A program made the translations under genes and the position numbers. Positions 23,062 through 62,601 of a stretch of 64,000 bases of DNA are shown in pieces. Each line of letters opens with the position of its first letter. The stretch's first letter is position 1. This DNA comes from a virus (lineage: Duplodnaviria > Heunggongvirae > Uroviricota > Caudoviricetes): positions 44,954-108,953 of IMG/VR virus record IMGVR_UViG_3300021255_003103; one strand, 5' to 3'. The notes under the pieces are model-generated. The model did not search any database and was not told the DNA's origin. It saw only the letters and a list, made by a program, of their open reading frames with translations.

Positions 23062-23076
23062 TAAAATTAAAGCTTT

Positions 23077-24212: not shown

Positions 24213-24216
24213 AAAT

Positions 24217-25427: not shown

Positions 25428-25428
25428 T

Positions 25429-26550: not shown

Positions 26551-26555
26551 TTATA

Positions 26556-27062
26556 ATGAAAAATATTATTAAATTTATCTTAGAAAAATTATTACCATTT
26601 AATGTTTGGATAATGGTTGGATTACCAGGTTCAGGTAAGTCAACATATATTAAAGAAGAACTTCCAAAGAATATTGAAATTATAAACCAAGATTCAATTA
26701 GAGTTGAACTTGGTATAATGAAAGATGATGAGCATAAAGCAATTGGAAATTCCGAACAAGAAAAAGAAGTTGCAAGAATTTGTTTAGAACGAATTGATAA
26801 AGCAATTAAAGATAAAAGAGATTTTGTTATTGATAATACAAATATTAAAGCAGGAAGAGTACAAAATTATTATGATAAGTTAAAGAAAGCTAATGCTAAT
26901 GTTCAAATAATCATTATTGATACTCCTAAAGAAATTTGCAAAGATCGTCGTAAAGAACATATACCAGAAAAGGTTATTGATGATATGCAATTAGGTCTTG
27001 ATAAAGTAAAGGATAAATTTAAGAATAATAAAGATACAATAATAGTTACAAATAGATATTAA
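26556..27062 (+). CDS. Polynucleotide 5'-kinase (T4 Pnkp kinase-domain-like) with CTS-like tag (MKNIIKFILEK)
   Basis: Walker A GLPGSGKST; IINQDSIR (cf. T4 INRDDYRQ); FVIDNTNIKAGRV (cf. VIISDTNLNPERR). Confidence 0.7.
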   Translation: MKNIIKFILEKLLPFNVWIMVGLPGSGKSTYIKEELPKNIEIINQDSIRVELGIMKDDEHKAIGNSEQEKEVARICLERIDKAIKDKRDFVIDNTNIKAGRVQNYYDKLKKANANVQIIIIDTPKEICKDRRKEHIPEKVIDDMQLGLDKVKDKFKNNKDTIIVTNRY

Positions 27063-27095
27063 ATAATTATTTTTAATAAATAAATAAATTATAAT

Positions 27096-27473
27096 ATGAA
27101 ATCAATAAGTAAATATATTTTAGAGTCAAAAAATAATAAAGAGTTAGTTAATTTTATTCATAAATTTGGATCAAAAGATGAGCAAAAATTTGATAAATTT
27201 ATTAATAATTTAGATATTAATAATGATGCTATAAATTTATTAAAAAAGAATTTTAATAATGATTCAGAATTTTATTATATAAATAGTGAATATTCAGATT
27301 CAGATTCATTTCAAGATAAATTACAAGATTTAATCGATGAAATTGAAGATAATGGAGAATTAATTGATGAATGGGATAATGAAGAAACATATATAAAAAT
27401 ATATAATCATTCTGATTTTGGAAAATTAATTTATATTGATATGTATGTACAAATAATTTTAATAGAAAAATAA
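27096..27473 (+). CDS. CTS-like-tagged acidic hypothetical protein (MKSISKYILES...)
   Basis: Family tag at the N-terminus. Confidence 0.5.
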   Translation: MKSISKYILESKNNKELVNFIHKFGSKDEQKFDKFINNLDINNDAINLLKKNFNNDSEFYYINSEYSDSDSFQDKLQDLIDEIEDNGELIDEWDNEETYIKIYNHSDFGKLIYIDMYVQIILIEK

Positions 27474-33162: not shown

Positions 33163-34146
33163 ATGGAATTAAATGACGAATATATAATTAAATTATGTTT
33201 TCAAAAAAATTGTGGTCGATTAATTAGAAATTTTAGTTTTGATAAATTAGATAATAATGTTAAAGATTACATAATAAATAGATATAACGATTCATTATCA
33301 ATTGAAGAAACACTAAAAAGAATATATTATAAAATTGAATTTCATCCAAAATGTCCTATATGTGGAAAATTAGTATCTTGGGGTAAATGCGGAAATAATA
33401 AATTTTTTCATAATACATGCAGTTTAAAATGCGCTGGAAAATTAAGTTTGCAAACAATTAAAAAAAAATATGGTTATAGTAATCCAATGGATTTTCCAAA
33501 CGCAAAACAAAATTTAGAAAATACATGTTTAAAAAAATATGGAGTTAAACATGTATTACAAAATAAAGATATAAAGAAAAAACAAGAGCAAACATGTATT
33601 AAAAGATTTGGTACAAATAATATTTTTTCATCCGAAATTGGAAAACAAAAAATAAAAGAATCATTAATAAAACATTTTGGTGTAGATCATCAAATGAAAT
33701 CTCAAGAAATAAAAAATAAATTTAATTGGAAACAATCAGTAGAAAAACAAATTGAAACAAAAAGAAAAAATAATTCTTTTCATATTTCAAAACCAGAGGA
33801 AGAATCTTATATATTATTAAATAATAAATTTAATGATGTAAAAAGACAATACAAATCAAAAAGTTATCCTTATTGTTGTGATTTTTATATTCCAAGTTTA
33901 GACCTATATATTGAATGTAATTATCATTGGACACATGGCGGTCATCCATATAATGAAAACGACATTAATGATATAAATAAAGTAAAAGAATTAAAATCTA
34001 AAAATAAAAAATTTTATAATAATGTTATAATAACATGGACAGTAAGAGATGTTAATAAAAGAAACATAGCCAAAGAAAATAATTTAAATTATTTAGAATT
34101 TTGGAGCATTAATGAATTAAAAAAATGGATAAATATATATAAATAA
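33163..34146 (+). CDS. Zn-ribbon + repeat + Vsr/DUF559-like (PD-(D/E)XK) endonuclease-domain protein; paralog of the N-terminal part of 48997..50763(-)
   Basis: CPICGK...C..C zinc ribbon; tandem (K)KYG(V/Y)-containing ~27-aa repeats; C-terminal CDFYIPSLDLYIECNYHWTHGGHPYNEN ... NVIITWTVRDV fits the DUF559 pattern (DF...l.iE.dG..H ... w.v.R). About 330 aa are strongly similar to the other copy. Confidence 0.5.
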   Translation: MELNDEYIIKLCFQKNCGRLIRNFSFDKLDNNVKDYIINRYNDSLSIEETLKRIYYKIEFHPKCPICGKLVSWGKCGNNKFFHNTCSLKCAGKLSLQTIKKKYGYSNPMDFPNAKQNLENTCLKKYGVKHVLQNKDIKKKQEQTCIKRFGTNNIFSSEIGKQKIKESLIKHFGVDHQMKSQEIKNKFNWKQSVEKQIETKRKNNSFHISKPEEESYILLNNKFNDVKRQYKSKSYPYCCDFYIPSLDLYIECNYHWTHGGHPYNENDINDINKVKELKSKNKKFYNNVIITWTVRDVNKRNIAKENNLNYLEFWSINELKKWINIYK

Positions 34147-37397: not shown

Positions 37398-40300
37398 ATG
37401 GCTCTTTTTGATGAAAGAATTAATGAATATGTTAGCTGGAAAGATGGTAAGCATTATTTTTCAGGAAAAAATGTAACTGATAATATGCAGCCTTCGGGAA
37501 GGGTTATTCGTGAATTATTACAAGAAAGATTAAGAAATCCAATTTTTATACCAACAAAAGAATCTGTTGGTACATCTACATTTATTGATGATGGATATTG
37601 GAGAATATTCTCAAGTAAAGATGCATATGATTTATGGCTTACTGATAGAGTTGCATATGCAGAATTAGAATTAGCAAAATTCCCAAAGCAATCAGAATAT
37701 GAATTCCAATTAACTGGATTTGAAAATAATGCAAGATATGTTATTGAGGGTAGTGGGAATCAAGCAAATGCTGAATTAAACTATACTTGGGATATATTTA
37801 AAGGGCAAAATCCAGTAAATGATAGTATTATAGTTACATATACAATTACAAATACAAATACTAGAAAGACACAATCTTTTACAAACATGTTTACAAATGC
37901 ACAAAAGAATGTGTCAATTAATCTTTATGAATATTTAGGAGAAGGTCAAAATGTTGTAAATATTAATTTGCAAGGTATTAATACATCTGTTTCTGCTGGG
38001 CAAACAATATTTATTACAATGTTACAATTTAAAATTGAAGCAGAATGGAATTATTCTGCATATCATAAACAAGGTGATCCTTTAATGATTCTAAATTATC
38101 GTGTTTTAAGAAACGATACAAATGCTGAAGTAACAGTTTTTGGAACTATTGATAATAATGATACTGTTATTACTGATACATTTGGAAAGGGTTTTTCTGA
38201 TATTCAAAAAACAAATATAGCAATACCAAATAATAACAGATGGGTATCATCAAGTGATGGAAACCCAGTTAAGCACAATTTACAAATGTGGGCTCAGACA
38301 TCATATAATGGTACATTATTTACATCAAATATACTTTATTATGAATTTGAGTTTGCATCAGAAGAATCATTAATTAATCACTTTATTAATTTATCGACAT
38401 CAATTTCATCTGAAGATAAATCATCAATACCTGTTATTAATCCAACATTAATAGCAACTCAATATATTTCAACTAAAATATCTTATGGATATTACACTGA
38501 TAGTGCTTCCCTTGATGCTTCAATTTCAGTGAATTGGAAATTAATTAAAGAAAATTCTACAGATGAACAAATAATTGGAACTTACGATATTTCAAAAAAT
38601 ACAACAAGTGTTTTAGAATTTATACCAATTATAGCAACAGAAGCTAAAAAATCAGTATATTTAGTTGCCACTTATGGAAGTGGAGTAGATGAAGAAGAAC
38701 TTTTGAAAATATTAATATCAATTACACCTAATACTGGTTTTATGGAGCAAAGCGGTTATGTATTAAAGTTAAATGCATACGGTAAGCAAAATAATGATAA
38801 TGTAGAACAGACATGGGAATATGGGTCAAGTTCAAATAAAATAATTACAAGATTTGAAGGTATAGATTGGACTGATAATAAAGGATGGTATAATAATTCA
38901 TTTAGAACATTTGGAACAGATTCCTATGCAGAAATTCAATATGCACCATTAGTAGATATATCACAAGGTAAAACTATTGAAATTGATTTTGAATCAGAAA
39001 AGGTTAGTAATCTTAATGATGTATTAATATTAATTGGTAATAAAAATGGTGCTAGAATTGAAATTACACCAAATAGTGCTACACTATATAATGCAGCTAA
39101 TGTAAATGTCATTGAAACAAACTTTAAAGCAAATGAACGTCTTCATTTATGTTTTATCTTTAATAAAACAGAAACTAATTCAGATAAGAGTGATTTGATT
39201 TTTATAACAAACAATGGTATTCTTGAACGTGCTGTTTCTGGATTAGGTTCAACATTTACATCAAATGGTAATATTAAAATTGGTGGAAGTAGATCTGGTG
39301 TAAGGGTGTATAGTATAAGAGTATATGATTTTGCATTATCTTATACAAATGCATATAATAACTATTTATTTGATTCAGAAGATAAAATTGCAATTAAAAC
39401 AAAAAATGCAGTAATTAATGAATCAACAAATATTATAGACTATGATTTATGTCGTAACAAGATTGATACAATTTTAATTAAAGGTGATTTAAGTAATTTA
39501 TTAAAAGCAACAACAGATAAAGACCAATCTACAACAGATGTTGAAATATTACGTGTATGTCCTTATGATTCAAACTATAACTTTACATGCACTGGTGGTA
39601 TGATTAGAAAACACGGTCAGTCAACATTGAACTATCCTGTTCCTTCAATGAAAATTTGGTTTAATAAGTCAAAATCTGGAGCAACTCCAGTATTTCAATG
39701 TTCTGGCCAAGAAAGCGAAGGATATGCAAAGAATAGATATAGAATGAAAGCAAATTCTATACCTTCAAATAAATTTGTATTACAAGCAAACTACTCAGAT
39801 TCATCTGGTGTTCATAATGGATCATTACAAAGATTAATTAATGAGACATGGTATAATGCAAAGATTAATGGTGAATACAAATTAAGAACAATACCTCAGT
39901 TATTTACATCTAATCAAAAAATTACTAGAAATAATTCTAATCTTTATGATCAATTAGATACAAATAGCAATCTTACTTTAGGAACAAATACTGACGGAAA
40001 ACAATGGAAAGATTATACAAATAATCAATTCCCATATATTTATAGTGATTCTAATAACAAAATGCATAATGGATTACAAATTGGCCCAGATTCGTTCCCT
40101 TGCGTAGTTTTCTATGAAGATACATCATCAAGTGGTAACACAACATTCTTAGGATTATATGTATTCATGGAAGATAAAAAGGCAGATTTCATATATGGAG
40201 AAAGATCTATTTATTATTACGATAATGGTTCTGGACATACATTAGCTGATGATCCATTTGTCTTAAAAACAGAAAACACCAAAAAAGGTAAATATGCAAT

Positions 40301-43300
40301 ACAATTGCCAACTGGCGATACTCAAGCTTTAGATAATGATGATAATAAAGTTTGGGATAACGAACATGTTTTAAGAATTGAAGGTTTGACAATTAATACA
40401 CCATTTTCTTCATTTATGTCAAATACTGATAGTGCAGGTGTTTCATTTGATGCTGTATATAATATTGTAGATAAATCAGGCAATGTTACAGATACTATTT
40501 ATAGATGGGAACAAGACTTTGAATTAATTTATCCAGATCCTGACGATATAGTAGGTAAGATTGATAATGTTACAATGAAAGATACGACTAAGTTTGGTTA
40601 TGATTCTAAATTTAAACGTACATGTCAGCCTTGGGTGGATTTCTTTAATTGGGTTACATCAACATATCAAAATCAAGAAAAATTCGAACAAGAAGCTTCA
40701 CAGCATTTTGATATTTATAAGATGGCTGCATATTATATTATGTTCTTAAGATTTGGTCTTGTTGACTCTGTTGAACGTAATGCGCAATGGAAAACATATG
40801 ATGGTAAACACTGGCATTGTGAATCTTGGGATATGGATATTGCTCTTGGTAATATGAACACTGGTGGTATTGCATTTGATCCACCTATTGATCGTAATTC
40901 TACATTTAAAACAGATACCACTACATATGCATATTCTGGTAAGACAACATCAACGTCTAATTGGATATGGGATGCATTTGAAAACTGGACTTATTGGAGT
41001 AAAGAAGTAGTACCAGCAGTAGCACAAGCTTTATATGAAGCTGGATTAACATATAATAACATTTCTAAAATGTTTGATGAAGAATACCAAGATAAATGGT
41101 GTGAAATTCTTTATAATGAATCAATGTCTTTTAAATATATTAAATCAAGAGGTAATAGTGATCAATGGTTAGCATGGTTACAAGGAGCTCGTACATCACA
41201 CAGACACTGGTGGTTAAGTACATCAATGAATTTCTGGGATTCAAAATGGACATGTGGTGATTATAAAAACCACAAAGTAACAATATTTGCAAACCATAAT
41301 AAGAGTACTTCAGGTAAAGAATATATTATTTGTAAGACAAATGGTTCAACGTATTTGTCAATGGTAAGAGAATCTACTACAATTGATTCTCAATACGCAA
41401 CGTTATCATCTCCAGCAAATTTTGATATTACTGATGTTGAAATGTCTAACAAGGTACAATTCCATATATATGGTGCAACATATATTGAAGAATTCGATGG
41501 TAGTGCATTTGCCAATGGTATAAGTACAATTACATTTGCTGGTGCATATGATGATGTATTAGGCGCTCCTTTAAAGAAAGTTAATTTAGGATGCCCTTAT
41601 GAAACATTAGCAACTGGTGAAATGATAGGTACATTTAATGGTATTTTAACAGGTATTACATTCTCAGATAGTTTTGGTAATGATGCTGCAAAGGGCTTAC
41701 AAGAATTAAATGTAACTGGTCAAATTAATTATGGAAGTAATTTATTAGTTCCTGAAATTGAAAAATTAAATAAAACAGAATTAAAGAATTTCTATGGAAA
41801 GGGTTCTGGTATAACATCATTCCATTCATCTCTTTCAGGTAATGCATTTGTCAATATTGAATTACCTGGTCATTTACGTATGTCTGATGGATCAAAAGAC
41901 ATAGGATTTACTGAATTAGTAATGACAAACTCTACATGGGAAAATCTTACATGGTATGATTCAGTTGTTGATTCTCATTATGAAACAATGACATATCTAG
42001 ATGAAAATGGAGTTGAAAAAGAAAAACAAGTACCAGTTGGAACAATTTCTTATGAACGTACATGTGTAGAAAAAGGTGATAGACATAATATACCATTTAC
42101 ATTAACAATTGTTAGATTTATTGGTTCTACAGGTAAGACTGAAAAATCAATGCGATTTGTATTAGATTGGATTAAATCAATTGAAGCATATTTGAGAAAT
42201 GCTATGAACAATGGAGCAATTGCACCAGGTGTAGGTGATTATGCTGAATGTGAAACTTTTGACGATATGTTAAAACATGAACTTAACCGTAGAACATTAG
42301 AAATTGATAATATTAAATGGGATCATACAACTATTAAAGATAATGAATTAATTACATATAAGCAATTACAATATATATCAATGTTTAATGATGGAAGAAA
42401 TAATGCAGATAATAATACACCATTATTAAAAGGATATATTGAAGTAAGTATGGATGATGGTGAACTATCTGTAGAACAATTGACTCAATTAAAAGAATGG
42501 TTTGGTAATCAGATATTTAGTATTAAATCAATTGGTGTTGGTTTAGTTATTGACCAGTCATTAAATTATATTAAAATTAATGTTGGTAATGCAAATGTTG
42601 AAACAAACCCAGATACTGGTGAACTTGAAATTTCAATTGAAGAAGGAAGCAGAGCAACATTATCTGCTACTAGATTCCAATTACAAGAAAACGATACTAC
42701 AACATATTGGGGAATTAAAGCACCTGGTTCAGCTGCTAATGCAGGTACTAGTTGGCAAGGATGTACGATAACAACTGGTAAAGATAAGTTAACATATTTG
42801 GATGTAGCAGAAACAGTATATGGAGATCGTACAATTGAAGTTACATGTTCTATGGTTGGTGAAGAATTATCGTCATCAGTATTAATACATATTAAAGCAG
42901 TTTCATATCCTGCAAGTATAAAATTAGCAGTGGATCAATCACGTAATGGAAGTAATGAAATGAATAGATTACGTGATTTTGCTGGTGCATATGTATATTG
43001 GAAAGGTGGATTAGTGGCAGAATTCTATCCTGAAATCAAATGGATAGAAGAATCATTTTCTGGTGATACTGTTGATGAATCTACTATAAGAAAAGCTAAA
43101 ATTGATGATATTATATATACATTGACAAATTCAAATGGTCAGAACATAATTAATCAAGTTTCATACAATACATTCCAAAAGGGTCAAAATTCAACAGGAA
43201 ACGTTAATGATAATTATATTACATATTATAATAATGCTACTCCAGAGCTTAAAGGTATTGTTTTAGGAGTACAAAATTTACCAGATCAAGGATCTGCAGA

Positions 43301-44045
43301 TTATAAATTAACAATAACTATAAGATATGCATCAAATAAAACTGTTATATTAACGACAAATATTATTATAATTGATGATGCTGTTGAAATAGTACAATAT
43401 AATAGTGGTTTATTGTTTGATGCATTAAAAGATCAATATTTAGCATGTAATAATGCAACAATAACACGTTCATTCTATAAATCAGATTTATTATCATTAA
43501 ATGGAACATTATCATTTACAGATTCAAAATATCAACTTTTGACTGATTTAACAACTATAGATCGTAAAAGTATTTTTGAATATTTACCAAATATTGAAGG
43601 TATTGATTTATCTGGATGCACTTCTCTAGACACATCTCCTGATGCGCCACCAACAGATTCTAGTGACGCACGTAGAAATTTTGTTATGAATAAATGCACT
43701 AAGCTTACAACATTTAATGTTACTGGATGTACATCACTCGGTAATGTATATAATACATTATCAAGATTTTATCAGATTGATTTAAGTAAATGCACAGCAA
43801 TTAAAACTGTAAAAGCGTATGGTACAAAAGTAGATATATTACTACCATCTAGTTCAAGCATACAGACATTAGAATTAGGTACGCCAAGACATATTGCATT
43901 AATAAATCAAAATGAATTATTTACTAATAAAGTTTCAGTACAAAATCCAGATAGTTTGGAAAGTGTTGTATTAAATACTGATTCTCAATCAAAAAATGAT
44001 TTATTTAGTACATTTGCACAAATTATATTAAATACAGAACTATGA
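37398..44045 (+). CDS. Giant (2215 aa) structural protein (tail fibre/baseplate candidate)
   Basis: 6.6 kb uninterrupted ATG ORF; Thr/Ser/Asn/Gly-rich; stop overlaps the next start (ATGA). Confidence 0.55.
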   Translation: MALFDERINEYVSWKDGKHYFSGKNVTDNMQPSGRVIRELLQERLRNPIFIPTKESVGTSTFIDDGYWRIFSSKDAYDLWLTDRVAYAELELAKFPKQSEYEFQLTGFENNARYVIEGSGNQANAELNYTWDIFKGQNPVNDSIIVTYTITNTNTRKTQSFTNMFTNAQKNVSINLYEYLGEGQNVVNINLQGINTSVSAGQTIFITMLQFKIEAEWNYSAYHKQGDPLMILNYRVLRNDTNAEVTVFGTIDNNDTVITDTFGKGFSDIQKTNIAIPNNNRWVSSSDGNPVKHNLQMWAQTSYNGTLFTSNILYYEFEFASEESLINHFINLSTSISSEDKSSIPVINPTLIATQYISTKISYGYYTDSASLDASISVNWKLIKENSTDEQIIGTYDISKNTTSVLEFIPIIATEAKKSVYLVATYGSGVDEEELLKILISITPNTGFMEQSGYVLKLNAYGKQNNDNVEQTWEYGSSSNKIITRFEGIDWTDNKGWYNNSFRTFGTDSYAEIQYAPLVDISQGKTIEIDFESEKVSNLNDVLILIGNKNGARIEITPNSATLYNAANVNVIETNFKANERLHLCFIFNKTETNSDKSDLIFITNNGILERAVSGLGSTFTSNGNIKIGGSRSGVRVYSIRVYDFALSYTNAYNNYLFDSEDKIAIKTKNAVINESTNIIDYDLCRNKIDTILIKGDLSNLLKATTDKDQSTTDVEILRVCPYDSNYNFTCTGGMIRKHGQSTLNYPVPSMKIWFNKSKSGATPVFQCSGQESEGYAKNRYRMKANSIPSNKFVLQANYSDSSGVHNGSLQRLINETWYNAKINGEYKLRTIPQLFTSNQKITRNNSNLYDQLDTNSNLTLGTNTDGKQWKDYTNNQFPYIYSDSNNKMHNGLQIGPDSFPCVVFYEDTSSSGNTTFLGLYVFMEDKKADFIYGERSIYYYDNGSGHTLADDPFVLKTENTKKGKYAIQLPTGDTQALDNDDNKVWDNEHVLRIEGLTINTPFSSFMSNTDSAGVSFDAVYNIVDKSGNVTDTIYRWEQDFELIYPDPDDIVGKIDNVTMKDTTKFGYDSKFKRTCQPWVDFFNWVTSTYQNQEKFEQEASQHFDIYKMAAYYIMFLRFGLVDSVERNAQWKTYDGKHWHCESWDMDIALGNMNTGGIAFDPPIDRNSTFKTDTTTYAYSGKTTSTSNWIWDAFENWTYWSKEVVPAVAQALYEAGLTYNNISKMFDEEYQDKWCEILYNESMSFKYIKSRGNSDQWLAWLQGARTSHRHWWLSTSMNFWDSKWTCGDYKNHKVTIFANHNKSTSGKEYIICKTNGSTYLSMVRESTTIDSQYATLSSPANFDITDVEMSNKVQFHIYGATYIEEFDGSAFANGISTITFAGAYDDVLGAPLKKVNLGCPYETLATGEMIGTFNGILTGITFSDSFGNDAAKGLQELNVTGQINYGSNLLVPEIEKLNKTELKNFYGKGSGITSFHSSLSGNAFVNIELPGHLRMSDGSKDIGFTELVMTNSTWENLTWYDSVVDSHYETMTYLDENGVEKEKQVPVGTISYERTCVEKGDRHNIPFTLTIVRFIGSTGKTEKSMRFVLDWIKSIEAYLRNAMNNGAIAPGVGDYAECETFDDMLKHELNRRTLEIDNIKWDHTTIKDNELITYKQLQYISMFNDGRNNADNNTPLLKGYIEVSMDDGELSVEQLTQLKEWFGNQIFSIKSIGVGLVIDQSLNYIKINVGNANVETNPDTGELEISIEEGSRATLSATRFQLQENDTTTYWGIKAPGSAANAGTSWQGCTITTGKDKLTYLDVAETVYGDRTIEVTCSMVGEELSSSVLIHIKAVSYPASIKLAVDQSRNGSNEMNRLRDFAGAYVYWKGGLVAEFYPEIKWIEESFSGDTVDESTIRKAKIDDIIYTLTNSNGQNIINQVSYNTFQKGQNSTGNVNDNYITYYNNATPELKGIVLGVQNLPDQGSADYKLTITIRYASNKTVILTTNIIIIDDAVEIVQYNSGLLFDALKDQYLACNNATITRSFYKSDLLSLNGTLSFTDSKYQLLTDLTTIDRKSIFEYLPNIEGIDLSGCTSLDTSPDAPPTDSSDARRNFVMNKCTKLTTFNVTGCTSLGNVYNTLSRFYQIDLSKCTAIKTVKAYGTKVDILLPSSSSIQTLELGTPRHIALINQNELFTNKVSVQNPDSLESVVLNTDSQSKNDLFSTFAQIILNTEL

Positions 44046-45106
44046 ACATAAATACTATTAATATTCAACAATCATTAAATGTTACTGAAGAAATACCTCA
44101 TTCTGTATTAGGTGAAATATATAATATATTTAAAAATCCTAATTTTAATATTAGACAATCAATTTTAAGAGGCAAAGTATCAGTTGATTTTTCATATAGA
44201 AGTTGGATATCTGAATTACAAAATAGATGGAACAGTTTTCAAATTACAGCACGTGATTATTATCAGGACTGGGATGATTTAGCTTTTAGAACTGGTATTT
44301 CTAAACTTTGGGGTGACGGATATGGAGTTACACCAACACAATTAAATAAAAGCTTACAGTTTGGATGCTCTGAAAATGAATGTAAAAATGGTCCATTTTG
44401 GCATAATACTGAAGTTGAAGTTGTAGATCTTAGACCTTTTAAAAATATAGATAAAATAGATAGCGAATGGAATAGATTTAGATTTCATGGGCATAATGAA
44501 AACTGGGATTTTTCACAAATGAAATTAAAAGAAATTTATGTTCAAGCTAATTCAGGTACATTAAAGCCAGATTTTTGGGGTGGAAACGATAATGGAGAAC
44601 ATTTAGAAAAACTATGGGTTGAAGGAAATAAAAATCCAGCAATGCCAATCATGAAATGGAGTATTGCTAATGGATATAACACCGGTAAGACAATAATAGA
44701 TCATTTATATTATAGAAATAATTGTACTGTTGATACTGGAAATCAAATTGAAAGGCCAAATGGAACAAAATTTAAATATTTAAGTGTACTTAGTTATGCT
44801 GGCTGGCAATTTAGAGGATGGTATCCTCAAAATATAATATTAGATAGTCCAATACCAATAATGGTTGGAGAAAAATTGAGTTTTGGTAATGGTTTAAGTA
44901 ATACAACAATATATGTTCCAGATCATCAACTAAATGATTATACTATTTTATATAATCAAGTTGGAGATGATCATTCTGTTAGAATATTTTCATGGACTAC
45001 ATATAATGCAAATTTCGTTAAAATGAGAGAATGGTATAAATATGATGGAATAACTTTATATGATGATCCAACAGCATACATGTTTGCTGATGGTAATAAC
45101 TATTAA
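44042..45106 (+). CDS. Hypothetical structural-module protein (354 aa), translationally coupled to the giant ORF
   Basis: ATGA overlap with the upstream gene; a terminator follows. Confidence 0.5.
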   Translation: MNINTINIQQSLNVTEEIPHSVLGEIYNIFKNPNFNIRQSILRGKVSVDFSYRSWISELQNRWNSFQITARDYYQDWDDLAFRTGISKLWGDGYGVTPTQLNKSLQFGCSENECKNGPFWHNTEVEVVDLRPFKNIDKIDSEWNRFRFHGHNENWDFSQMKLKEIYVQANSGTLKPDFWGGNDNGEHLEKLWVEGNKNPAMPIMKWSIANGYNTGKTIIDHLYYRNNCTVDTGNQIERPNGTKFKYLSVLSYAGWQFRGWYPQNIILDSPIPIMVGEKLSFGNGLSNTTIYVPDHQLNDYTILYNQVGDDHSVRIFSWTTYNANFVKMREWYKYDGITLYDDPTAYMFADGNNY

Positions 45107-45277: not shown

Positions 45278-47014
45278 ATGACAAATAAACGTTGCTTGGT
45301 TTATGAGACTTTAGGAAGCGTTTCAAATCTTCAAGTGTCAGAAGCTAAAGGCGATGGTTTAATGCGTTTGCAAGGTGTATTTGGTGTTTGCGGTGTAAAG
45401 AATCAAAATAATCGTGTATATGACAAAGATAATTATGCACAGATGGTTGAATCTTTACAAAAAAAGATTAAAGAATCTGGTTGTCCAGGAGAATTGGAAC
45501 ATCCTAATTCAATGAACATAAATCTTGAAAATGTATCTCACAAAATTGAAGATATTCAGATGAATGAAGATGGTACAATTACAGGTTCAATTGTTCTTTT
45601 AAATACTCCTAAAGGTCAAATTGCAAAAGCTATCGTTGAAGGCGGTCTTCCACTTTTTATTTCGTCACGTGGTGCTGGTACAATTACTAATGAAGGTCGT
45701 GTAACATTATCTACAATACAGACATATGATTTAGTAGGTACTCCAGGATTTAGTCAAGCTAAGCTCACATTATCAAATAATCAAAAACTTGAATGTTTGA
45801 ATGAAGGTCTAGAAGATAATAATGAAACTTGGGTTATTGTTGAAGGTGATGATCTTTTAGGAGATGAAGATAATAAAGATGATAATAAAGATCCTAAAGA
45901 TAATAAAGATTCAAAAACCAATAAAGATAATGATCCAAAAAATGGTGACAAACCTAAAGATGACGATAACAAAAATAATGACGATAAAGACATCAATATG
46001 AAAGAACTTAAAGAAGCTATTGATAAGCTTACTGAGAAAGTAACATCTCTCGAAGCTGAACTTCATGTAGCTCAAGAATCTTTAAACGAAACACAAAATG
46101 AAGTAAAGTCATTTAAGCCAACAAATTATGACGGTATTCAAAAGTGGGTTGTTGAACAATTTGCTCCAGAGTTCCAAAAAAAAATCAATGAAAGCTTAAA
46201 TACTTTAATAAGTGAAAAGTTTAATGATGATTCTTCAGAAGATATGCAAGAATCTATTAAATCTTGGGTTGTTGAAGAATTTGCTCCATTAGTACAAGGT
46301 TGGATTACTGAAGAATTTTCACCAGAAATTCAAAATTGGATTACTGAAGAATACTCACCAGAAATTCAAAAATGGATTGTTGAAGAATACTCACCAGAAA
46401 TTCAAAAATGGATTGTTGAAGAATACTCACCAGAAATTCAAGGTTGGATTACTGAAGAATACTCACCAGAAATTCAAAATTGGATTACTGAAGAATACTC
46501 ACCAGAAATTCAAGGTTGGATTACTGAAGAATTTGCTCCTACCGTTGAAAATTGGTTAATGGAAGAATATACTCCTGAACAATCATTAATTATTGAAAAG
46601 AAAGTAAATGAAAATGTATCTGCATTTATGGAATCACAAAAAGCAGGTCGTCTTGATGAAATTGACGGTTTACTTGAATCTATTGCTGCTGAAGGAAACA
46701 ATGATGTTCAAAAAATTGTTAAAGAGCAACAAGAGGAAAATAAGTATAAAGGAATATATGTAGTAGAAAATATGCCAGCTGAATATCTTCCATCTTGGAA
46801 TATGCTTAATGAAGCTGCACAACAATTAATTATTAGAAGTTCAAAAATGTATGACTTTACTAAAGAAGGCGTACTTGAATCATTCTGGGCTAATGTAGAT
46901 TTTGGTAAGAATGCTGAAGAAACAAAGCCAGTTGTAGAATCAAAGAATCCTATTCAAAATTATCAAAATAATATTATAGCTAACATGAAGAGACTTCGTG
47001 GTTTGAACTACTAA
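45278..47014 (+). CDS. Prohead protease (T4 gp21-like) fused to an acidic repeat-containing scaffold-like C-terminal region
   Basis: The N-terminal ~180 aa (LQGVFGVCGVKNQNNRVYDKDNY...GELEHP...SSRGAGT) aligns with T4 gp21 (GIFMQAEVVNRNKRLYPKRIL...). Downstream is a poly-acidic KD/ND-rich linker, a coiled-coil segment, and 7-8 tandem 14-aa repeats WI(T/V)EE(Y/F)SPEIQ(N/K/G). Confidence 0.6.
   Translation: MTNKRCLVYETLGSVSNLQVSEAKGDGLMRLQGVFGVCGVKNQNNRVYDKDNYAQMVESLQKKIKESGCPGELEHPNSMNINLENVSHKIEDIQMNEDGTITGSIVLLNTPKGQIAKAIVEGGLPLFISSRGAGTITNEGRVTLSTIQTYDLVGTPGFSQAKLTLSNNQKLECLNEGLEDNNETWVIVEGDDLLGDEDNKDDNKDPKDNKDSKTNKDNDPKNGDKPKDDDNKNNDDKDINMKELKEAIDKLTEKVTSLEAELHVAQESLNETQNEVKSFKPTNYDGIQKWVVEQFAPEFQKKINESLNTLISEKFNDDSSEDMQESIKSWVVEEFAPLVQGWITEEFSPEIQNWITEEYSPEIQKWIVEEYSPEIQKWIVEEYSPEIQGWITEEYSPEIQNWITEEYSPEIQGWITEEFAPTVENWLMEEYTPEQSLIIEKKVNENVSAFMESQKAGRLDEIDGLLESIAAEGNNDVQKIVKEQQEENKYKGIYVVENMPAEYLPSWNMLNEAAQQLIIRSSKMYDFTKEGVLESFWANVDFGKNAEETKPVVESKNPIQNYQNNIIANMKRLRGLNY
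46262..46586 (+). repeat. 42-nt (14-codon) in-frame tandem repeats (x7-8) inside the protease/scaffold gene
   Basis: The repeated peptide WITEEYSPEIQNW is visible in the translation; the same stretch yields a repetitive alternative-frame artefact ORF (46377..46559). Confidence 0.8.
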
Positions 47015-47112: not shown

Positions 47113-48882
47113 ATGTTTAATGAACAAAATGGCGCAGTTACATGGGAAAAAATGTTGAAGGAAAACTTTAACGTTAATGACCAGGAAAAACTTAACTGGG
47201 TTTCTCAATATGCTGCAATTCATGAAATTCATGAATCACAATTAGGTATTAATACTGGTAATGTAGTTCCATCTACAGCTCATCCAGGTGTTAGCCCTAT
47301 TTATGCAACTCCAATGAATACTCTTGGCATTGGTAATCCAACAGCTCCTAGCCAATTAGATCCAATGAGTACAGCACCTTATAATGCTGCTAATCCAACA
47401 GGTTCATTCTGGGGTCAAACTCCAGGTTCAGGTGATATTCCAGTATCAACACTTCCAATGGCTCTTAACATTGCATTGTTAACTATTGGTCTTGAACTTG
47501 TTCCAGTTATTCCTTCTAAAGGTCCTTGGGCTATGTTAACATATATGGACTTCCCATATGCTGGTGGTAAGCTCGGTCGTGTAAACGAAACATCATTTGA
47601 TGGTAAGGGTGAAGGTAATGAAAACAAGCCTATCTACATTAAGATTAAAGGTCTTACACTTACTCAAATTGCTGGTATTCGTGGAGCAATGGAAGCTGGT
47701 GATGTAAAAGCTGATTCTGTTGTTGAAGTTGGTGGTTTCAAAGGTAAGTTTATCATGCTTGGTCGTATGGATGCTTGCCCACTTGTTAAAGTTGTAGAAT
47801 GCTCTGCTGCTAATAAATCAATTCGTGAAGAATTTGGTGCTGCTACAACAGTTAAGATTGGTACTCACACAATTACATTAGAAGCTGCTTCTGAAGGTAA
47901 GGCTGCACAAGCTGTTGAAGCTGATTTCGTTCAAACTTCAGTTGATTTAGTTGATGGTTTTGCTAACTTCTTTGATGGTAGTAAGAATCCTATGACACGT
48001 GCTCAAAACGAAACTGGTACAGGTAATGTAATTGGTCTTCGTTTATTCAGCAAGTGGATCCAAATGGGTTCATACGAAGTAACTGGTACTGTTACACGTC
48101 AACAACTTCAAGATCTTCCTCTTTATGGTGTTGACGCAGTATCTAAAGTTATGGAAGCTCTCCAAAACGAAATTACACAACACATCAACCAACGTATTCT
48201 TGAAAGAGTATTTGCACTTGGTGTTACTAACGCTGTACAGCAAAAGGCTCGTCAAGGTGTAGATCTTAACCTTTATATGGGTAACGGTGGCGCTGATATT
48301 CCATTTGCTACTGCATTCCCAGGTGTTCCACACTTCACAGATATCTATGGACATGATCATAAAGCTGATTGGGGTAACGTAAAGAATGCTGAAGTTAATA
48401 CTTCTGCTGAAAATCTTGCAACACGTCAACGTCGTATTATGTCTAAGTTACTTGCTGCTGCTAACTTAATCCAATTAGTAGGTCGTCGTGGTCGTCCAAC
48501 ATGGGTTGTAACAAACGGACAAGTTGCTACTGCACTTCAAGATGTTTCAGGTTATGTTGTAGCTCCAATGCTTAACACAATGTCTCAAGCTAATACACAA
48601 AACTTATACCATGCAGGTACAGTTGCTGGTCTTCAAATCTATGTTGATCCATATATGGACTGGAATGATACACGTATCTGTATTGGCCGTAAGGGTGATG
48701 GTAATTCACCAGGTGTTATCTTTATGCCTTATATCCTTGCTGATACAGTTTCTATTACTGCAGAAGGTACAATGGCTCCAAAGATGCTTGTTAACTCAAG
48801 ATATACTATTGCAGAAGCTGGCTTCTATCCAGAACTCCAATATCTCACAATCGCAGTTGGTTCAGCATTTGGAATTATCTAA
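47113..48882 (+). CDS. Major capsid protein, T4 gp23-like
   Basis: Blockwise similarity to T4 gp23: ALNIALLTIGLELVPVIPSKGPWAML vs AIPNLIAFDICGVQPMNSPTGQVFAL; PTWVVTNGQVATALQDVSG vs GNFIIASRNVVNVLASVDTG; LQIYVDPYMDWNDTRICIGRKG vs YRVYIDQYAKQDYFTVGYKG. ORF-track start 47098 is TTG; ATG is at 47113. Gene order protease-scaffold then MCP is as in T4. Confidence 0.7.
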   Translation: MFNEQNGAVTWEKMLKENFNVNDQEKLNWVSQYAAIHEIHESQLGINTGNVVPSTAHPGVSPIYATPMNTLGIGNPTAPSQLDPMSTAPYNAANPTGSFWGQTPGSGDIPVSTLPMALNIALLTIGLELVPVIPSKGPWAMLTYMDFPYAGGKLGRVNETSFDGKGEGNENKPIYIKIKGLTLTQIAGIRGAMEAGDVKADSVVEVGGFKGKFIMLGRMDACPLVKVVECSAANKSIREEFGAATTVKIGTHTITLEAASEGKAAQAVEADFVQTSVDLVDGFANFFDGSKNPMTRAQNETGTGNVIGLRLFSKWIQMGSYEVTGTVTRQQLQDLPLYGVDAVSKVMEALQNEITQHINQRILERVFALGVTNAVQQKARQGVDLNLYMGNGGADIPFATAFPGVPHFTDIYGHDHKADWGNVKNAEVNTSAENLATRQRRIMSKLLAAANLIQLVGRRGRPTWVVTNGQVATALQDVSGYVVAPMLNTMSQANTQNLYHAGTVAGLQIYVDPYMDWNDTRICIGRKGDGNSPGVIFMPYILADTVSITAEGTMAPKMLVNSRYTIAEAGFYPELQYLTIAVGSAFGII

Positions 48883-48996: not shown

Positions 48997-50763
48997 TCAT
49001 TTTTTAAATATATATAAATATTCTTTATTATTATGTATAGTTCCACATGCTAGATGTTTTGATTTTTTATTATTAATTTCAAATGATTCAAAGCATTTTT
49101 CTTTATATTTATAATCTAATAAATCTTCTCTTATAACTAAACCAAATATCTTACAAGAATCTTTATAATAAAATACATTAAATAAATTATCTATAAAATT
49201 ATTATATTCTTCTTTATTTTCAAAACTTTTACATTCATATTCTTCAATATTATAATATGGGGGGCATGTAAATATTGCATCAAAGTCAATATTAGGAATA
49301 AAATTATTTGCATCATTATTATAAAATTGAACATTATTAAGATTTAAATCTTTAGAAATTCGTTTTACATTTTTATAAATATTTGGTGATAAATCATTAT
49401 ATATATACAATTCTAAATTTGTACTTCCTAATAATCTGTGTCCCCATCCACCGCATGGATCATAGCATTTTTTTATATTATATTTATTAATAAAATATTT
49501 AAATATAAGCGGATTAAAATGAGAATAACCATAATACATACCAGAATGTTTAAACCCTAAAAGTAAATCATTATTTGTTAATTTTTCTATTTGCTTATTT
49601 AAATATTTACATCTATTTGATATTAGACGTTCTTTTATATTATTATCTTGTATTAATTCATTTTCTTTTTTAAAAAATACATCTTGTTGATAATATTTTA
49701 CAATAAAATTATATGATGTTGAACCATTTAAGTTACCTTTCTTATTCTTATAATAATTATATTCATTTAATATTTTATCCCAATCAAAATAAATATATAG
49801 TGGTAAATTAATCCAATTATATAATTCATCATATGAATAAAATACAAGATAATTTAATTGATTTTCTTTTGCTGTATTTCTTTTATTTACATCTCTTATT
49901 GTCCAAGTATTAATTGCGTTGTTATAAAATTTAGTATTTTTTTCTTTCCATTTATTTAATTTATTTATATCATCTTTATTGTTTTCATTATAAGGATGAC
50001 CACCATGAGTCCAATGATAATTACATTCAATATATAAATCTAAACTTAGTATATAAAAATCACAAACAAAAGGATATTCTTTAGATTTATATTGAGCTGT
50101 AACATCTGGGTATTTTTCTTTCAATAATTTATATGATTCATTTTCAGGTTTAGACTTATTAAATGAATTATTTTTTTTCTTCGTATTGTAAGATTTTTCC
50201 TTAAATTCAATTGAATTAAAAAATAATATTGATTTATTAATAAATGCATTATATTGATCAATATTATTTTTTATTGTGTTCCATCTTTTAGAAATATTAT
50301 TTGATGATTTGTATTTATTGCATTTTGTTTTATTTTGACGTTCTAAAATTTCTTTACGTTGTGCTTGTTCCTCTACACCATATTTAAGTAAATTAGTTTG
50401 CTTTCTTTTATTAATATTATTATTAGATCCGTATTTGTCTATTTTTGTATTACATTGTTTATTATATACTTCTTTATCTTTTTGCTCACAAGATATTGAA
50501 CAATATGTATTATAACATGTATTTTCTTTATATCCAAGATTAAAATTAGTTAATTTTCCACATATTGGACATACTGGTCTAACTTGTATATCAAATAATA
50601 TGCGATATATTGATTCTTTAATATTGTTAGAATCATTAAATCTTAATAATAAATAGTTTCGTAAATTTTCAAATTTCTTGTTTCTAATTAATCTATTATA
50701 GTTTGATAAATTTAATCTATTATCATTAATAAATAAATTAATTATACAATTATCATAATCCAT
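48997..50763 (-). CDS. Vsr/DUF559-like endonuclease domain fused to an amino-(N6A/N4C) DNA methyltransferase; antisense insertion between the capsid and sheath genes
   Basis: The N-terminal ~330 aa are paralogous to 33163..34146 (Zn ribbon; CDFYILSLDLYIECNYHWTHGGHPYNEN; NAINTWTIRDV). The C-terminal half has MTase motif I DPCGGWGHRL and motif IV FTCPPY. It is the only long minus-strand gene in an otherwise plus-strand structural module. Confidence 0.6.
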   Translation of the reverse strand: MDYDNCIINLFINDNRLNLSNYNRLIRNKKFENLRNYLLLRFNDSNNIKESIYRILFDIQVRPVCPICGKLTNFNLGYKENTCYNTYCSISCEQKDKEVYNKQCNTKIDKYGSNNNINKRKQTNLLKYGVEEQAQRKEILERQNKTKCNKYKSSNNISKRWNTIKNNIDQYNAFINKSILFFNSIEFKEKSYNTKKKNNSFNKSKPENESYKLLKEKYPDVTAQYKSKEYPFVCDFYILSLDLYIECNYHWTHGGHPYNENNKDDINKLNKWKEKNTKFYNNAINTWTIRDVNKRNTAKENQLNYLVFYSYDELYNWINLPLYIYFDWDKILNEYNYYKNKKGNLNGSTSYNFIVKYYQQDVFFKKENELIQDNNIKERLISNRCKYLNKQIEKLTNNDLLLGFKHSGMYYGYSHFNPLIFKYFINKYNIKKCYDPCGGWGHRLLGSTNLELYIYNDLSPNIYKNVKRISKDLNLNNVQFYNNDANNFIPNIDFDAIFTCPPYYNIEEYECKSFENKEEYNNFIDNLFNVFYYKDSCKIFGLVIREDLLDYKYKEKCFESFEINNKKSKHLACGTIHNNKEYLYIFKK

Positions 50764-56032: not shown

Positions 56033-56208
56033 ATGACTATATTTTTAGTTGGTAGTTGTAGTTTTACAGCGGCAAATTTAGATCCTAAAAGATTAAATAG
56101 TCAAATACAAGAATGTGGATGGTTAATCAATATGGTTGAAGGTATAGGCAAATGGAAAAATCATCCATGTAATTTTATGTACAAAGATCATATTGATTGG
56201 GTGAACTA
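56033..56208 (+). pseudogene. Putative 5' fragment of a gene interrupted by the IS200/IS605 element (MTIFLVGSCSFTAANLDPKRLNSQIQECGW...KDHIDW...)
   Basis: 58-codon ATG ORF ending a few nt inside the IS end. The same frame reopens, with no start codon, exactly at the other IS boundary (58022). Confidence 0.35.
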
Positions 56209-57474
56209 ACACAACGCTAAAGACGTTGTATCTTCCTGCTCAGCAAATTTACTTATAAATTTATTATAAGAAATTTTTACAGGCCCTTTTATACTTGTAT
56301 GATTAGTTCCTAACCTATCAAGTTTATCATATATAAGATAGAAATATATCATGTTATTTGCTGCATGTATGTCTCTATCTTCTTTTGTTTTACATTTAGG
56401 ACATTCAAATATTCTATCTTTTAATTCTAATTCAACTTTAGATCCACATTTATTACAATATTTTGTCGTTGGAAACCATTTGTCTAGTATAACTGTTCTA
56501 TCGCACATACTTAATTTGTACTTTATTCTACCTAATATAGAATGCTGTATTTTAGATCCACTCATTCCATCTTGTCTCCATTCACTTATTTGCTCATCTT
56601 GTATTACTATTGTTTTATTATCATTTAAAATTGAATGAACTATTTTATTTGATATGTCATTTTTCTTGTTATTTATATGGATATACTCTTTTCTGATTTT
56701 CTTAATAGTCTTATATCTGTTGTTTGAGCCTTTTATTTGTTTACTAAGCTTAGCTTGTAATCTTTTAAGTTTCTCACTTTCTTCAATAGATATGTCATAT
56801 TTGATGCCATCAGATAAAGTCAAACTTGTAGACACACCCATATCTATGCCTACTATGTTATTTTTATATTGTTTATTTTTATCTTTATTTATATAACAAG
56901 TTAAACTAATATAATAATCATTTCCATCATATAATAGTTTTGCATTTGCATAATCTATGTTATCGTATTTGTTTAATTGCTTAATCCCGTTAACACGAAT
57001 AAGTTTTTTTATTCCTTGTATTTTAAACTTATTTCCTCTTATGCTATGCGTATTATTATATTGTTTTAATTCAATACAATTAAATTCTGATTTATATTTT
57101 AATTTGCCAACATCATATCCTTTTTTCTTTAATGCAGATAAACCTTTTATTTGGTTTACAATTTGTTTTATTATTCCTTGTTTTAATGCTGAACTAATAT
57201 AAGATATATTTACTTGTATATCATTTCCATACTTATCTTTATGCGTTATTGTGTTTAAATCTTTATAGTCAAAATTAAATACATCTTTATCTAAAAGATA
57301 ATTATATATCCACTTAGCCTCAACAAACTGCATTTTTATCTGTTCGTTTTGCTGTTTAGATAAACTAGATTTATCAACTTTAAACTTAAAGCACTTGCAT
57401 ATCTGAGACTTACGTTTATCATAAGTCTCTCTCATAGTCTGTGCTATATGTTTATTTTTTTCTAATCTATCCAT
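56206..57474 (-). CDS. tnpB: TnpB (IS605 OrfB-family RNA-guided nuclease-like; RuvC-like + Zn ribbon)
   Basis: C-terminal CNKCGSKVE...CPKCKTKEDRDIHAANNM (Zn ribbon plus RuvC-III DxxAAxN) and the central GIDMGVS (RuvC-I). Divergent from tnpA. Confidence 0.75.
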   Translation of the reverse strand: MDRLEKNKHIAQTMRETYDKRKSQICKCFKFKVDKSSLSKQQNEQIKMQFVEAKWIYNYLLDKDVFNFDYKDLNTITHKDKYGNDIQVNISYISSALKQGIIKQIVNQIKGLSALKKKGYDVGKLKYKSEFNCIELKQYNNTHSIRGNKFKIQGIKKLIRVNGIKQLNKYDNIDYANAKLLYDGNDYYISLTCYINKDKNKQYKNNIVGIDMGVSTSLTLSDGIKYDISIEESEKLKRLQAKLSKQIKGSNNRYKTIKKIRKEYIHINNKKNDISNKIVHSILNDNKTIVIQDEQISEWRQDGMSGSKIQHSILGRIKYKLSMCDRTVILDKWFPTTKYCNKCGSKVELELKDRIFECPKCKTKEDRDIHAANNMIYFYLIYDKLDRLGTNHTSIKGPVKISYNKFISKFAEQEDTTSLALC

Positions 57475-57531: not shown

Positions 57532-57951
57532 ATGGAATTTGAAGATAATAGTAGAACTAGAAATCATTATAAAGGTGATTTAAATTATCATATAATATTT
57601 TCTACTAAATTTAGAAGAAAATGCTTGTCTAATATAGAAAATGAATTATATGATGCATTTAGATATTGTGAATCTAAATCACATTTTAATATTAAAACAA
57701 TGAAACAGGATAAGGATCACATACATTTATTAGTTAATATAAAACCAACATATAGTTTAGGGCAAACTATAAATAGAATGAAACAGATGACAACAAACTA
57801 TTTATATAGAAATGACAAGACTAGAACGTGGCTTAGAAATTTTTACTGGGCTAAACGACTAACATTATGGACACATGGATATTTTGCATCAACTATAGGA
57901 CATGTAAGTGAAGATATAGTATGGAATTATATTGAAAACCAAGGAAAATAA
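57532..57951 (+). CDS. tnpA: IS200-like Y1 (HuH) transposase TnpA
   Basis: HuH motif DHIHLLVNI and catalytic-Tyr region HGYFASTIG; 139 aa. Confidence 0.75.
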   Translation: MEFEDNSRTRNHYKGDLNYHIIFSTKFRRKCLSNIENELYDAFRYCESKSHFNIKTMKQDKDHIHLLVNIKPTYSLGQTINRMKQMTTNYLYRNDKTRTWLRNFYWAKRLTLWTHGYFASTIGHVSEDIVWNYIENQGK

Positions 57952-61377: not shown

Positions 61378-62601
61378 TTAGCGAAATGAAATTGAATTAA
61401 TTTTTATTCTAACTGGGTTATACACATACCTCTTATCTGCTGGTACTATATTTAGCACATCACAGTTACATTTTTGTATACCTAATCTCATTATATTGAA
61501 TGATCCGTTTACATCAGCATTTATCTTATGTCCATATTTTGATTTAAATAATCCACGTTTGATTCGTTTTCCAAAATAAGTTTTATGCTGACATATTTTT
61601 TCGTTATCAATAAAACTACATTTAGATGTATATGCTTCATTTAGTAAAATCATTTTAATACCTGCTAATTTACATTTATAGTCTAACATACTTATAAGTA
61701 AATTATATGGTATAGCAACAAAATTTTGATTATTAGTTTTTCCTATGTTAATACCTTCTTTCCAACCAAAATTCTTACCTACAAATAATGTATTAAGATT
61801 GTTTGTTTCCATGTATATAACAATAAGATGACTAACTTTATGCATATAATCTTTTATCTTATTATTTCGTCTATAATTTATTCTTTTTATTCTATTGCTT
61901 GTTTTCCTATTTTTATTTAGCTTAGATTGTAATAATGCTTTTCTTTTATTGTAAAAATGATTTATATTTTTTAATTTTTTACCATCATATATAACAGATT
62001 GACATACGTTTGAAGTTAATGTTACTAAATTATTCAATCCTAAATCTAAAGCTGCATATTGTTTATTATCACATTTTAACTTATATTCTTTATTATATAT
62101 CAATTCAATTACTATATGATTTCCTTTATGTATAATTCTAACTATTTGCACATTTAGATTAGTCTCAATGTCAATTTTATTGTTATTATTTATCTTTAAT
62201 GACAATACATTGTTTTTTAATTTAAAACATTGATTTGTATATGTAACTATATTTCTTCCATTTTCTTTATCTTTATATTTAGGTAATCTAATTTTCTTAC
62301 CTTTCATTTTTGGCGATTTCAATACATTATAAAAAGAAACATATTGTTTATCTATTTGTCTTAATACTTGCTGGCTACATTGAGCATAAGGTAAAGATCT
62401 ATAATCAATTTGATTCTCTTTAGATAATAATGTATTAAGTTCATAATAAGACAGATATTTATTTGTATTTTTATAATATTGTCTTATTTGATATAAAGCA
62501 TAGTTATACAAATTCTTAGATTTAAAACACAACTCATCAAGCATAGAATACCATCTATGCTTATTATTTATAATAATTTGTTGTGTTAATTGCATTTTCA
62601 T
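61378..62601 (-). CDS. tnpB: Solo TnpB-like protein (IS605 OrfB family) without an adjacent tnpA
   Basis: RuvC-I AALDLGLNNLVT; RuvC-II NEAYTSKCS; RuvC-III NADVNGSFNI; Cys cluster; 407 aa. Confidence 0.65.
   Translation of the reverse strand: MKMQLTQQIIINNKHRWYSMLDELCFKSKNLYNYALYQIRQYYKNTNKYLSYYELNTLLSKENQIDYRSLPYAQCSQQVLRQIDKQYVSFYNVLKSPKMKGKKIRLPKYKDKENGRNIVTYTNQCFKLKNNVLSLKINNNNKIDIETNLNVQIVRIIHKGNHIVIELIYNKEYKLKCDNKQYAALDLGLNNLVTLTSNVCQSVIYDGKKLKNINHFYNKRKALLQSKLNKNRKTSNRIKRINYRRNNKIKDYMHKVSHLIVIYMETNNLNTLFVGKNFGWKEGINIGKTNNQNFVAIPYNLLISMLDYKCKLAGIKMILLNEAYTSKCSFIDNEKICQHKTYFGKRIKRGLFKSKYGHKINADVNGSFNIMRLGIQKCNCDVLNIVPADKRYVYNPVRIKINSISFR

Follow-up and report, generated by a model that had tools for sequence, protein, structure and literature searches.

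Head scaffolding and maturation are well understood in phages T4, lambda, P2 and P22 and in the herpesviruses, whereas in the abundant giant phages of Bacteroidota they are, to our knowledge, almost unstudied. In T4 the gene order is 20-67-68-21-22-23, and the genes for the prohead protease (21), the scaffold (22) and the major capsid protein (23) are consecutive and separate. On activation, T4 gp21 cleaves off its own first nine residues (PMC9958956; 'LIE-9' in PMC9026906). Elsewhere the two activities are joined: P2 gpO combines a protease at its N-terminus with an internal scaffold at its C-terminus and cleaves both itself and the capsid protein (PMC7552001), and in herpesviruses a scaffold open reading frame (ORF) is embedded in frame within the protease gene (PMC11565193). 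A 'prohead protease scaffold domain' is also described for phage Bas13 (bioRxiv 10.1101/2023.05.21.541620).

Here we analyzed a stretch of 64,000 nucleotides (the window) from an uncultured giant phage of the Caudoviricetes, positions 44,954 to 108,953 of IMG/VR record IMGVR_UViG_3300021255_003103; all coordinates below are those of the window unless another contig is named. One of its genes encodes, in a single ORF of 578 residues, a T4 gp21-type protease domain, a disordered acidic linker and a long, predominantly helical tail with a tandem array of 12-residue units, whose number varies among relatives. We consider it probable that the product is a bifunctional head-assembly protein, with the tail acting as the internal-scaffold (core) module.

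The architecture matches that of the known protease-scaffold fusions (P2 gpO, herpesvirus UL26) and is conserved in about 190 clusters, which by analogy points to a scaffold function. The protein would work like those fusions, as a member of the S77 family with a tail not homologous to gp22. Like P2 gpO, with which the comparison is one of architecture, it would unite both activities in one polypeptide, but gpO is half the size (284 residues) and has no tandem repeat array. Herpesvirus UL26/UL26.5 has the same protease fold class and also places protease, linker and scaffold in one ORF; its scaffold part is unrelated in sequence to the tail described here, and host and virus realm differ. T4 uses two genes where this phage has one ORF. 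To gp21 the relation is one of homology, with the same catalytic His and Ser, the same fold and the same N-terminal x-x-E↓T-(W/L)-G motif (the arrow marks the point of cleavage, presumed for the protein described here). To gp22 it is a functional analogy only: both are acidic, helical, dense in protease sites and encoded between protease and capsid protein, whereas gp22 lacks the 12-residue tandem array and the conserved C-terminal domain found here.

Domain architecture and position of the fused gene

The gene and the main parts of its product are as follows.

45278..47014 (+): whole gene of the putative prohead protease-scaffold fusion, 578 residues (ORF list; M1 and the N-terminus conserved in 120 homologs)
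45299..45307 (+): V8-Y9-E10, candidate N-terminal autocleavage site (VYE↓TLG); Y9, E10, T11, L12 and G13 invariant
45362..45772 (+): Peptidase_S77 (T4 gp21-like) protease domain, residues ~29-165 (Pfam, AlphaFold2, Foldseek)
45500..45502 (+): catalytic His75, in GELEHP (pairwise alignment with PDB 5jbl)
45662..45664 (+): catalytic Ser129, in ISSRG (pairwise alignment with PDB 5jbl)
45797..45805 (+): L174-N175-E176, putative site of C-terminal autocleavage where the protease domain ends, invariant in close homologs
45806..45997 (+): disordered acidic linker rich in K, D and N, residues 177-240 (composition, AlphaFold2)
45998..46105 (+): heptad coiled coil, residues 241-276 (AlphaFold2 helix, a/d pattern)
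46742..47011 (+): conserved C-terminal helical domain and basic end (MP...W...FW motif), residues ~489-577 (family conservation, AlphaFold2)

Profile matches, the catalytic residues and the predicted fold all identify the N-terminal ~170 residues as a T4 gp21-type (Peptidase_S77) prohead protease. Pfam Peptidase_S77 (PF03420) matches residues 29-152 with an E-value of 7.2e-12 (45.6 bits against a curated cutoff of 27), and the ORF matches PHROG 207, 'head maturation protease', with an E-value of 5e-44. His75 and Ser129 align with H85 and S140 of T4 gp21, both of which are Ala in the 5jbl construct, and are unchanged across 34 diverse homologs, down to about 30% identity. The AlphaFold2 model was built on a diverse alignment of 72 sequences and has a predicted local distance difference test score (pLDDT) of 73.6; an earlier model based on 40 close homologs (mean pLDDT 42) was discarded. 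Residues 30-165 are modelled with pLDDT > 90, and a Foldseek search of the PDB with this domain ranked T4 gp21 (5jbl) first, with an E-value of 1e-8 and a target-normalised template-modelling score of 0.67-0.70. Herpesvirus assemblins were the next-best matches.

Both ends of the protease domain bear candidate sites. The start of T4 gp21, MNEPQLLIE↓TWG, parallels VYE↓TLG here, and of the 34 diverse family members most have a hydrophobic-x-E where L174-N175-E176 lies here. C-terminal autocleavage is known in related giant-phage proteases (PMC5694885). We infer that the protease would cut itself at VYE10 and at LNE176.

The tail is built of several distinct parts. The linker (residues 177-240) is 38% acidic and differs in length among homologs, and pLDDT is below 50 over residues 172-238. 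The helix that follows (241-276, pLDDT 75-83) has a clean heptad pattern, whose a/d positions L244, I248, L251, V255, L258, L262, A265 and L269 are all invariant in close homologs. A second helix is predicted at residues 284-314, and the whole repeat array lies within one continuous predicted helix at residues 320-454 (pLDDT 75-87). The protein ends with a small helical domain (494-540, pLDDT 83-88) and a basic terminal helix. P500, F536 and W537 are nearly invariant family-wide, including in Tenacibaculum phages pT24 and PTm1 and in the uncultured phage LR756500; this domain may bind the capsid or the portal.

The tail is also dense in motifs of the T4 cleavage type. Residues 241-578 contain 5.0 [IL]xE motifs per 100 residues, against 5.9 in T4 gp22, 5.0 in the pT24 tail and 4.9 in the PTm1 tail, and about 1 per 100 in the capsid, sheath and portal proteins of T4 and of the phage of the window. 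When V is also counted, the tail holds 27 motifs, compared to 11.6 +/- 2.8 in composition-preserving shuffles.

Directly downstream of the fused ORF lies the gene of the capsid protein.

47113..48882 (+): gp23-like major capsid protein gene (Pfam Gp23, E-value 2e-27; start as called in public assemblies)

The fused ORF thus takes the position of T4 genes 21 and 22, and the order portal, one further gene, fusion and capsid protein is common also to pT24, PTm1 and LR756500. Where T4 gp23 is cut (L63-T64-E65↓A66), the capsid protein has I-H-E-I-H-E, pT24 has I-T-E and PTm1 I-N-E; in alignments with T4 gp23, five of six relatives have an [IL]-x-E at this site or a few residues from it. Together with VYE↓TLG and the conserved LNE176, the capsid I-x-E suggests that a T4-like cleavage specificity was retained.

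A preliminary description of the locus, made from the sequence alone, had proposed a single 578-residue ORF with a gp21-like N-terminus, an acidic KD/ND linker and a coiled coil, in place of a protease and a scaffold that are separate in T4. All of this agrees with our data, in which the gp21-like N-terminus was recovered by profile search as well as by catalytic residues and predicted fold, and T4 genes 21 and 22 are indeed distinct. Its term 'scaffold-like' fits the acidity, the predicted helices and the abundant cleavage motifs of the tail, but does not extend to a detectable homology to gp22.

The repeat array and its variation across the family

The repeat region comprises one isolated unit and one array with an amplified core.

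46145..46180 (+): isolated W-unit (WVVEQFAPEFQK), residues 290-301; W290 invariant
46265..46588 (+): tandem array of nine units of 12 residues (36 nucleotides), residues 330-437 (Tandem Repeats Finder, Trp-anchored unit list)
46301..46516 (+): recently amplified core of six near-identical units, residues 342-413 (nucleotide comparison)

Tandem Repeats Finder returned a sole strong array in the ORF, at 46300-46532, with a period of 36, 6.5 copies, 92% matches and a score of 382. The head-to-tail repeat of the preliminary description is therefore present, but neither its unit of 14 residues (42 nucleotides) nor its 7-8 perfect copies were recovered. The unit has 12 residues, as does the motif as it was written there (WITEEYSPEIQ plus one residue), and we count nine tandem units, of which six inner ones are near-identical and three (the first and the last two) divergent. 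The six share 30-35 of 36 nucleotides, and no two of them are identical over all 12 residues.

Among close homologs, 872 units give the consensus W-[VI]-[VT]-E-E-[FY]-[AS]-P-E-[VI]-Q-[NG], in which W and E5 are present in 100%, E4 in 92% and P8 in 91%. The unit motif can still be recognised in distant members of the family, whose overall identity is about 30%, and each 12-residue unit holds one potential cleavage motif, W-[IV]-x-E↓E. ORFs in alternative frames inside the repeat (e.g. 46377-46559) are by-products of the repeat and not genes. Giant proteins that match the repeat region (P0181, P0185, P0142) proved to be unrelated proteins with 12-residue or charged repeats and were not counted in the family.

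The number of tandem units ranges from 4 to 10 among close homologs, with a mode of 7, so that the comparison of copy number proposed in the preliminary description shows variation and not a constant count. Some pairs of proteins agree at all 364 residues outside repeat and linker (100% identity) and yet differ by 1-2 units. The terminal units are orthologous among homologs, and it is the interior ones that expand and contract; the array would grow and shrink by whole units, via slippage or unequal recombination. All differences among the six inner units are non-synonymous, on codons that they have in common. In relative L006, only two units are of the 'YSPEIQ' type, with synonymous differences between them, and a 'FAPEVQN' type is amplified instead. 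The shared codons, the exclusively non-synonymous differences and the other amplified type in L006 all argue for a recent, lineage-specific amplification within an ancient array. A recent expansion had been proposed on first inspection, and sequence comparison supports it for the inner units; the array itself is ancient and family-wide. Physically, the repeats could set scaffold length, as was further proposed, each unit corresponding to about 18 Å of helix, but a strict ruler is disfavoured since otherwise 100% identical proteins differ by 1-2 units. Unit number showed no visible trend with genome size among contigs of 245-467 kilobases (kb) with 7-9 tandem units, most of which are incomplete.

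The identical 578-residue protein occurs on three public contigs (NCBI, JGI, ENA), which shows that the array is not an assembly artefact of this window. We read two of the three loci, from separate ENA and JGI samples, and both translate exactly to this protein. Two length classes recur, P0033 with 67 member sequences and P0064 with 15, which argues that most copy-number differences are real, while some short-read ones could be assembly errors.

The family is widespread yet uncharacterised. We listed 120 full-length metagenomic homologs with 57-81% identity, on contigs of up to 467 kb, and a search of 1.8 billion cluster representatives with the tail only gave 190 clusters at E <= 1e-3. Most full-length tail hits (450-640 residues) bear the protease motifs. 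In the repeats of the tail clusters a period of 12 residues is dominant, with 16, 20, 24 and 28 as variants. In BFVD, several viral proteins of 500-660 residues give full-length alignments; their name there is 'prohead core protein serine protease'. Matches in phage genome records come via the protease domain only, the best being Tenacibaculum phages pT24, PTm1 and PTm5 (~50% identity), followed by Sphingomonas phage PAU, Lak megaphages and others.

In pT24 ('prohead core scaffold', BAV39266, 527 residues) and PTm1 ('prohead core scaffolding protein and protease', BBI90692, 564 residues) the gene is likewise fused and directly precedes the capsid gene. Both tails have repeats of the W-x-x-E-F-x-P type and the C-terminal MP...FW domain of the window protein. 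Compared to the near-identical 12-mers of the window, the repeats of pT24 are few and those of PTm1 degenerate with longer periods, and the acidic low-complexity segment follows the repeats in these two proteins whereas it precedes them here. LR756500 (a 462-kb genome) encodes a 632-residue fusion with a distinct Tyr-based repeat and the same C-terminal domain. The product names of pT24 and PTm1 are generic T4-derived labels, silent on the fusion. Proteins of phages XacN1 and Xoo-sp13 with similar names ('prohead core scaffolding protein and protease'/'scaffolding') were considered as further carriers and rejected, being unfused and of about 210 residues; the shared name is therefore generic and no marker of fusion. 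The fusion is thus already in public data under generic names, and the copy-number-polymorphic 12-residue array is undescribed; our literature searches found no paper describing this fusion or repeat.

PAU has the separate arrangement. Its protease gp151 (246 residues, 41.5% identity) lies in a similar head-gene neighbourhood and is followed by gp152, annotated 'scaffolding', which has no W-repeats. In Prevotella phage Lak-B2 (L012 3310-4647), read with the standard code, the homolog appears as two ORFs, one with the protease and the acidic linker and another that ends in a similar ...FW C-terminal domain; readthrough of in-frame stop codons would fit this split.

Proposed working and alternative readings

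On the reading that we favour, the coiled coil (241-276) would oligomerise the fusion protein, the W-repeat array would form a long helical rod of ~135 residues and ~200 Å, and the C-terminal domain would anchor this rod to the capsid shell or the portal. With such an anchor, every scaffold subunit would bring its own protease into the prohead. Once the shell is complete, the protease would release itself at V-Y-E10 and L-N-E176, trim the capsid protein at I-x-E and cut the rod at the [IV]-x-E of every unit, and the resulting peptides of ~12 residues would leave the head before DNA packaging.

Several observations weigh against this proposal. Neither BLASTP nor hhalign relates the tail to T4 gp22 (best E-value 3.6 and probability 0.2%, respectively) or to PAU gp152. 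The genome measures at least 245 kb, of which the window spans 64 kb, and a distinct scaffold gene could lie outside it. The AlphaFold2 model that yields the long straight helix is a monomer with a predicted template-modelling score (pTM) of only 0.34, which makes the relative arrangement of the tail parts uninformative, and a 12-residue period gives no clean amphipathic face on a regular alpha-helix. The cleavage specificity is taken by analogy from T4, and more than half of the 872 units of close relatives carry V, and not I or L, at P3, a residue that T4 is not known to accept at this position.

The alternative that survives best concerns a second product, and refines the proposal above rather than opposing it.

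45998..46000 (+): Met241, possible internal in-frame start of a scaffold-only product (conservation, start context)

Initiation also at Met241 would yield a scaffold-only protein of 338 residues, in excess over the full-length protein, a possibility that we hold only tentatively. An equally tentative extension, compatible with the bifunctional reading, is that the A-rich K/D/N codons of the linker double as an unstructured leader for this start. Met241 is invariant in the 120 homologs, in which residues 236-240 and 242 vary, and it is retained down to ~45% identity; more distant family members lack it. No gene of the window has a Shine-Dalgarno site, and the leaders are A/T-rich. With a start-site weight matrix built from 41 gene starts of the window, the context of Met241 scores -0.11, equal to that of the gene's own start (-0.04), but among internal ATGs it reaches no more than the 90th percentile and is surpassed by M524 and M570. 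Precedents also point both ways: T4 gene 21 carries an annotated internal start (PMC9026906) and herpesviruses have their in-frame scaffold ORF (PMC11565193), whereas P2 gpO works without a nested product (PMC7552001).

Two database proteins that appeared to be stand-alone scaffolds starting at Met241 were rejected: P0121 (339 residues) is preceded by a run of N within the linker in a scaffolded assembly, and the contig of P0129 (313 residues) begins inside the linker. The K/D-rich linker breaks short-read assemblies in relatives, as seen at L007 3776-3875 (N run) and L008 1-310 (contig end). Such a break leads gene callers to start at the equivalent of Met241 and so creates false 'scaffold-only' proteins.

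Somewhat less likely is that the tail is a targeting or anchoring propeptide, which would tether the protease to the portal, shell or core while a separate scaffold gene lies elsewhere, as in PAU, where gp152 comes right after the 246-residue protease. In T4, gp21 too makes up a minor part of the core, and its propeptides have been suggested to direct it into the prohead (PMC9026906); that only 64 kb of the genome were seen leaves room for such a gene. Against this, there is no other candidate between protease and capsid gene in the window, pT24, PTm1, L006 or LR756500, and none of the ORFs neighbouring the fusion gene matches a scaffold family. Moreover, a conserved helical module of ~340 residues with a gp22-like site density exceeds the needs of a tether.

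The preliminary description had also assigned the repeats a role in docking tagged cargo proteins. The tags do exist: at least 10 ORFs begin with MKxLxxYIxE(S), a stretch of ~10 residues.

18642-27473: tagged ORFs with a shared N-terminal tag, starting at 18642, 19508, 19954, 20632, 21883, 23811, ~24214, 24543, 26556 and 27096 (18.6-27.5 kb)
6285: start of one further tagged ORF

The tags precede unrelated domains, namely a HAD hydrolase, an AAA_33 P-loop kinase, a nucleoside diphosphate kinase (NDK) and several proteins without Pfam match. In T4, the capsid targeting sequence (CTS) of 10 residues delivers proteins into the scaffold core, with residues 4 and 7 acting in targeting and residues 8 and 10 directing processing (PMC9026906, PMC9958956), and the layout of the tags (hydrophobic 4, aromatic 7, I 8, E 10) fits these rules. 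The W-units could then be a docking rail with one site per unit, both partners being freed by I-x-E cleavage and the number of units tuning the cargo. We regard this as improbable. Repeats of variable number do form multivalent surfaces, and one tag before so many unrelated domains is in keeping with the idea, but binding of tags to units is a hypothesis, the binding partner of the CTS is undefined even in T4, the W-motif was found nowhere else in the 64-kb window, and packaging of metabolic enzymes is itself unproven. An RNA ligase (25429-26550, +; Pfam RNA_ligase, E-value 7.5e-07) lies amid the tagged genes, and its N-terminus, MNHLIDKYLKK, is tag-like without the Glu.

It is very improbable that the repeat is either an error of assembly or a low-complexity spacer without function: although short-read assembly copes poorly with 36-nucleotide tandem repeats and collapsed assemblies could explain part of the variation among otherwise identical metagenomic proteins, three independent assemblies give the same 578-residue protein, the variants P0033 and P0064 recur, the unit residues are strongly conserved down to ~30% identity, and the array is predicted helical.

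Neighbouring genes and significance

Upstream, a 2215-residue protein (37398-45106, +; PHROG 14959, function unassigned) is encoded with a stop/start overlap with a 354-residue ORF just before the protease gene. Relative L006 has a 2288-residue homolog, followed by two ORFs of ~360 residues. These proteins may be head or fibre appendages; PTm1 has head fibres.

Downstream, the capsid and tail-sheath genes are separated by an ORF of 588 residues on the other strand (48997-50763, -), which L006 lacks at that place. This ORF has in common with the ORF at 33163-34146 (+) an N-terminal region ending in CPICGK, and the latter matches homing-endonuclease PHROGs and DUF7487. The 588-residue ORF is probably a mobile insertion, in a placement that recalls T4 segD, which lies after gene 23. 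The phage genome also contains an element of the IS200/IS605 type (56206-57474, -, and 57532-57951, +), in which the Y1 transposase TnpA (Pfam Y1_Tnp, E-value 3e-27) adjoins TnpB (OrfB_IS605 and Cas12f1-like TNB), and a second TnpB copy lies ~4 kb off (61378-62601, -).

The observation from which this work started is confirmed in part and its interpretation supported in part, and the protein is a variation on a known design and no new kind of system. Its family suggests that the T4-type protease lineage has also taken up the fused protease-scaffold solution. The array adds a simple, countable structural variable, a helix that would be longer by ~18 Å with each unit and that varies at strain level. 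In coliphage Bas13, the 'scaffold domain' of the prohead protease triggers toxicity of the cyclic-oligonucleotide-based antiphage signalling system (CBASS), and an escape mutation maps there (bioRxiv 10.1101/2023.05.21.541620); by analogy, it is conceivable that rapid turnover of units helps the phage to escape host sensors of such domains.

If the tagged proteins are packaged, the head would carry enzymes of nucleotide metabolism, which is unexpected. Packaging of foreign proteins has already been done with T4, and the combination of tag and protease suggests a route to it in phages of this kind. With PTm1 and pT24 in culture, three predictions are accessible to experiment: cleavage of the rod to 12-mers, a nested scaffold product, and an influence of unit number on head assembly or cargo loading.

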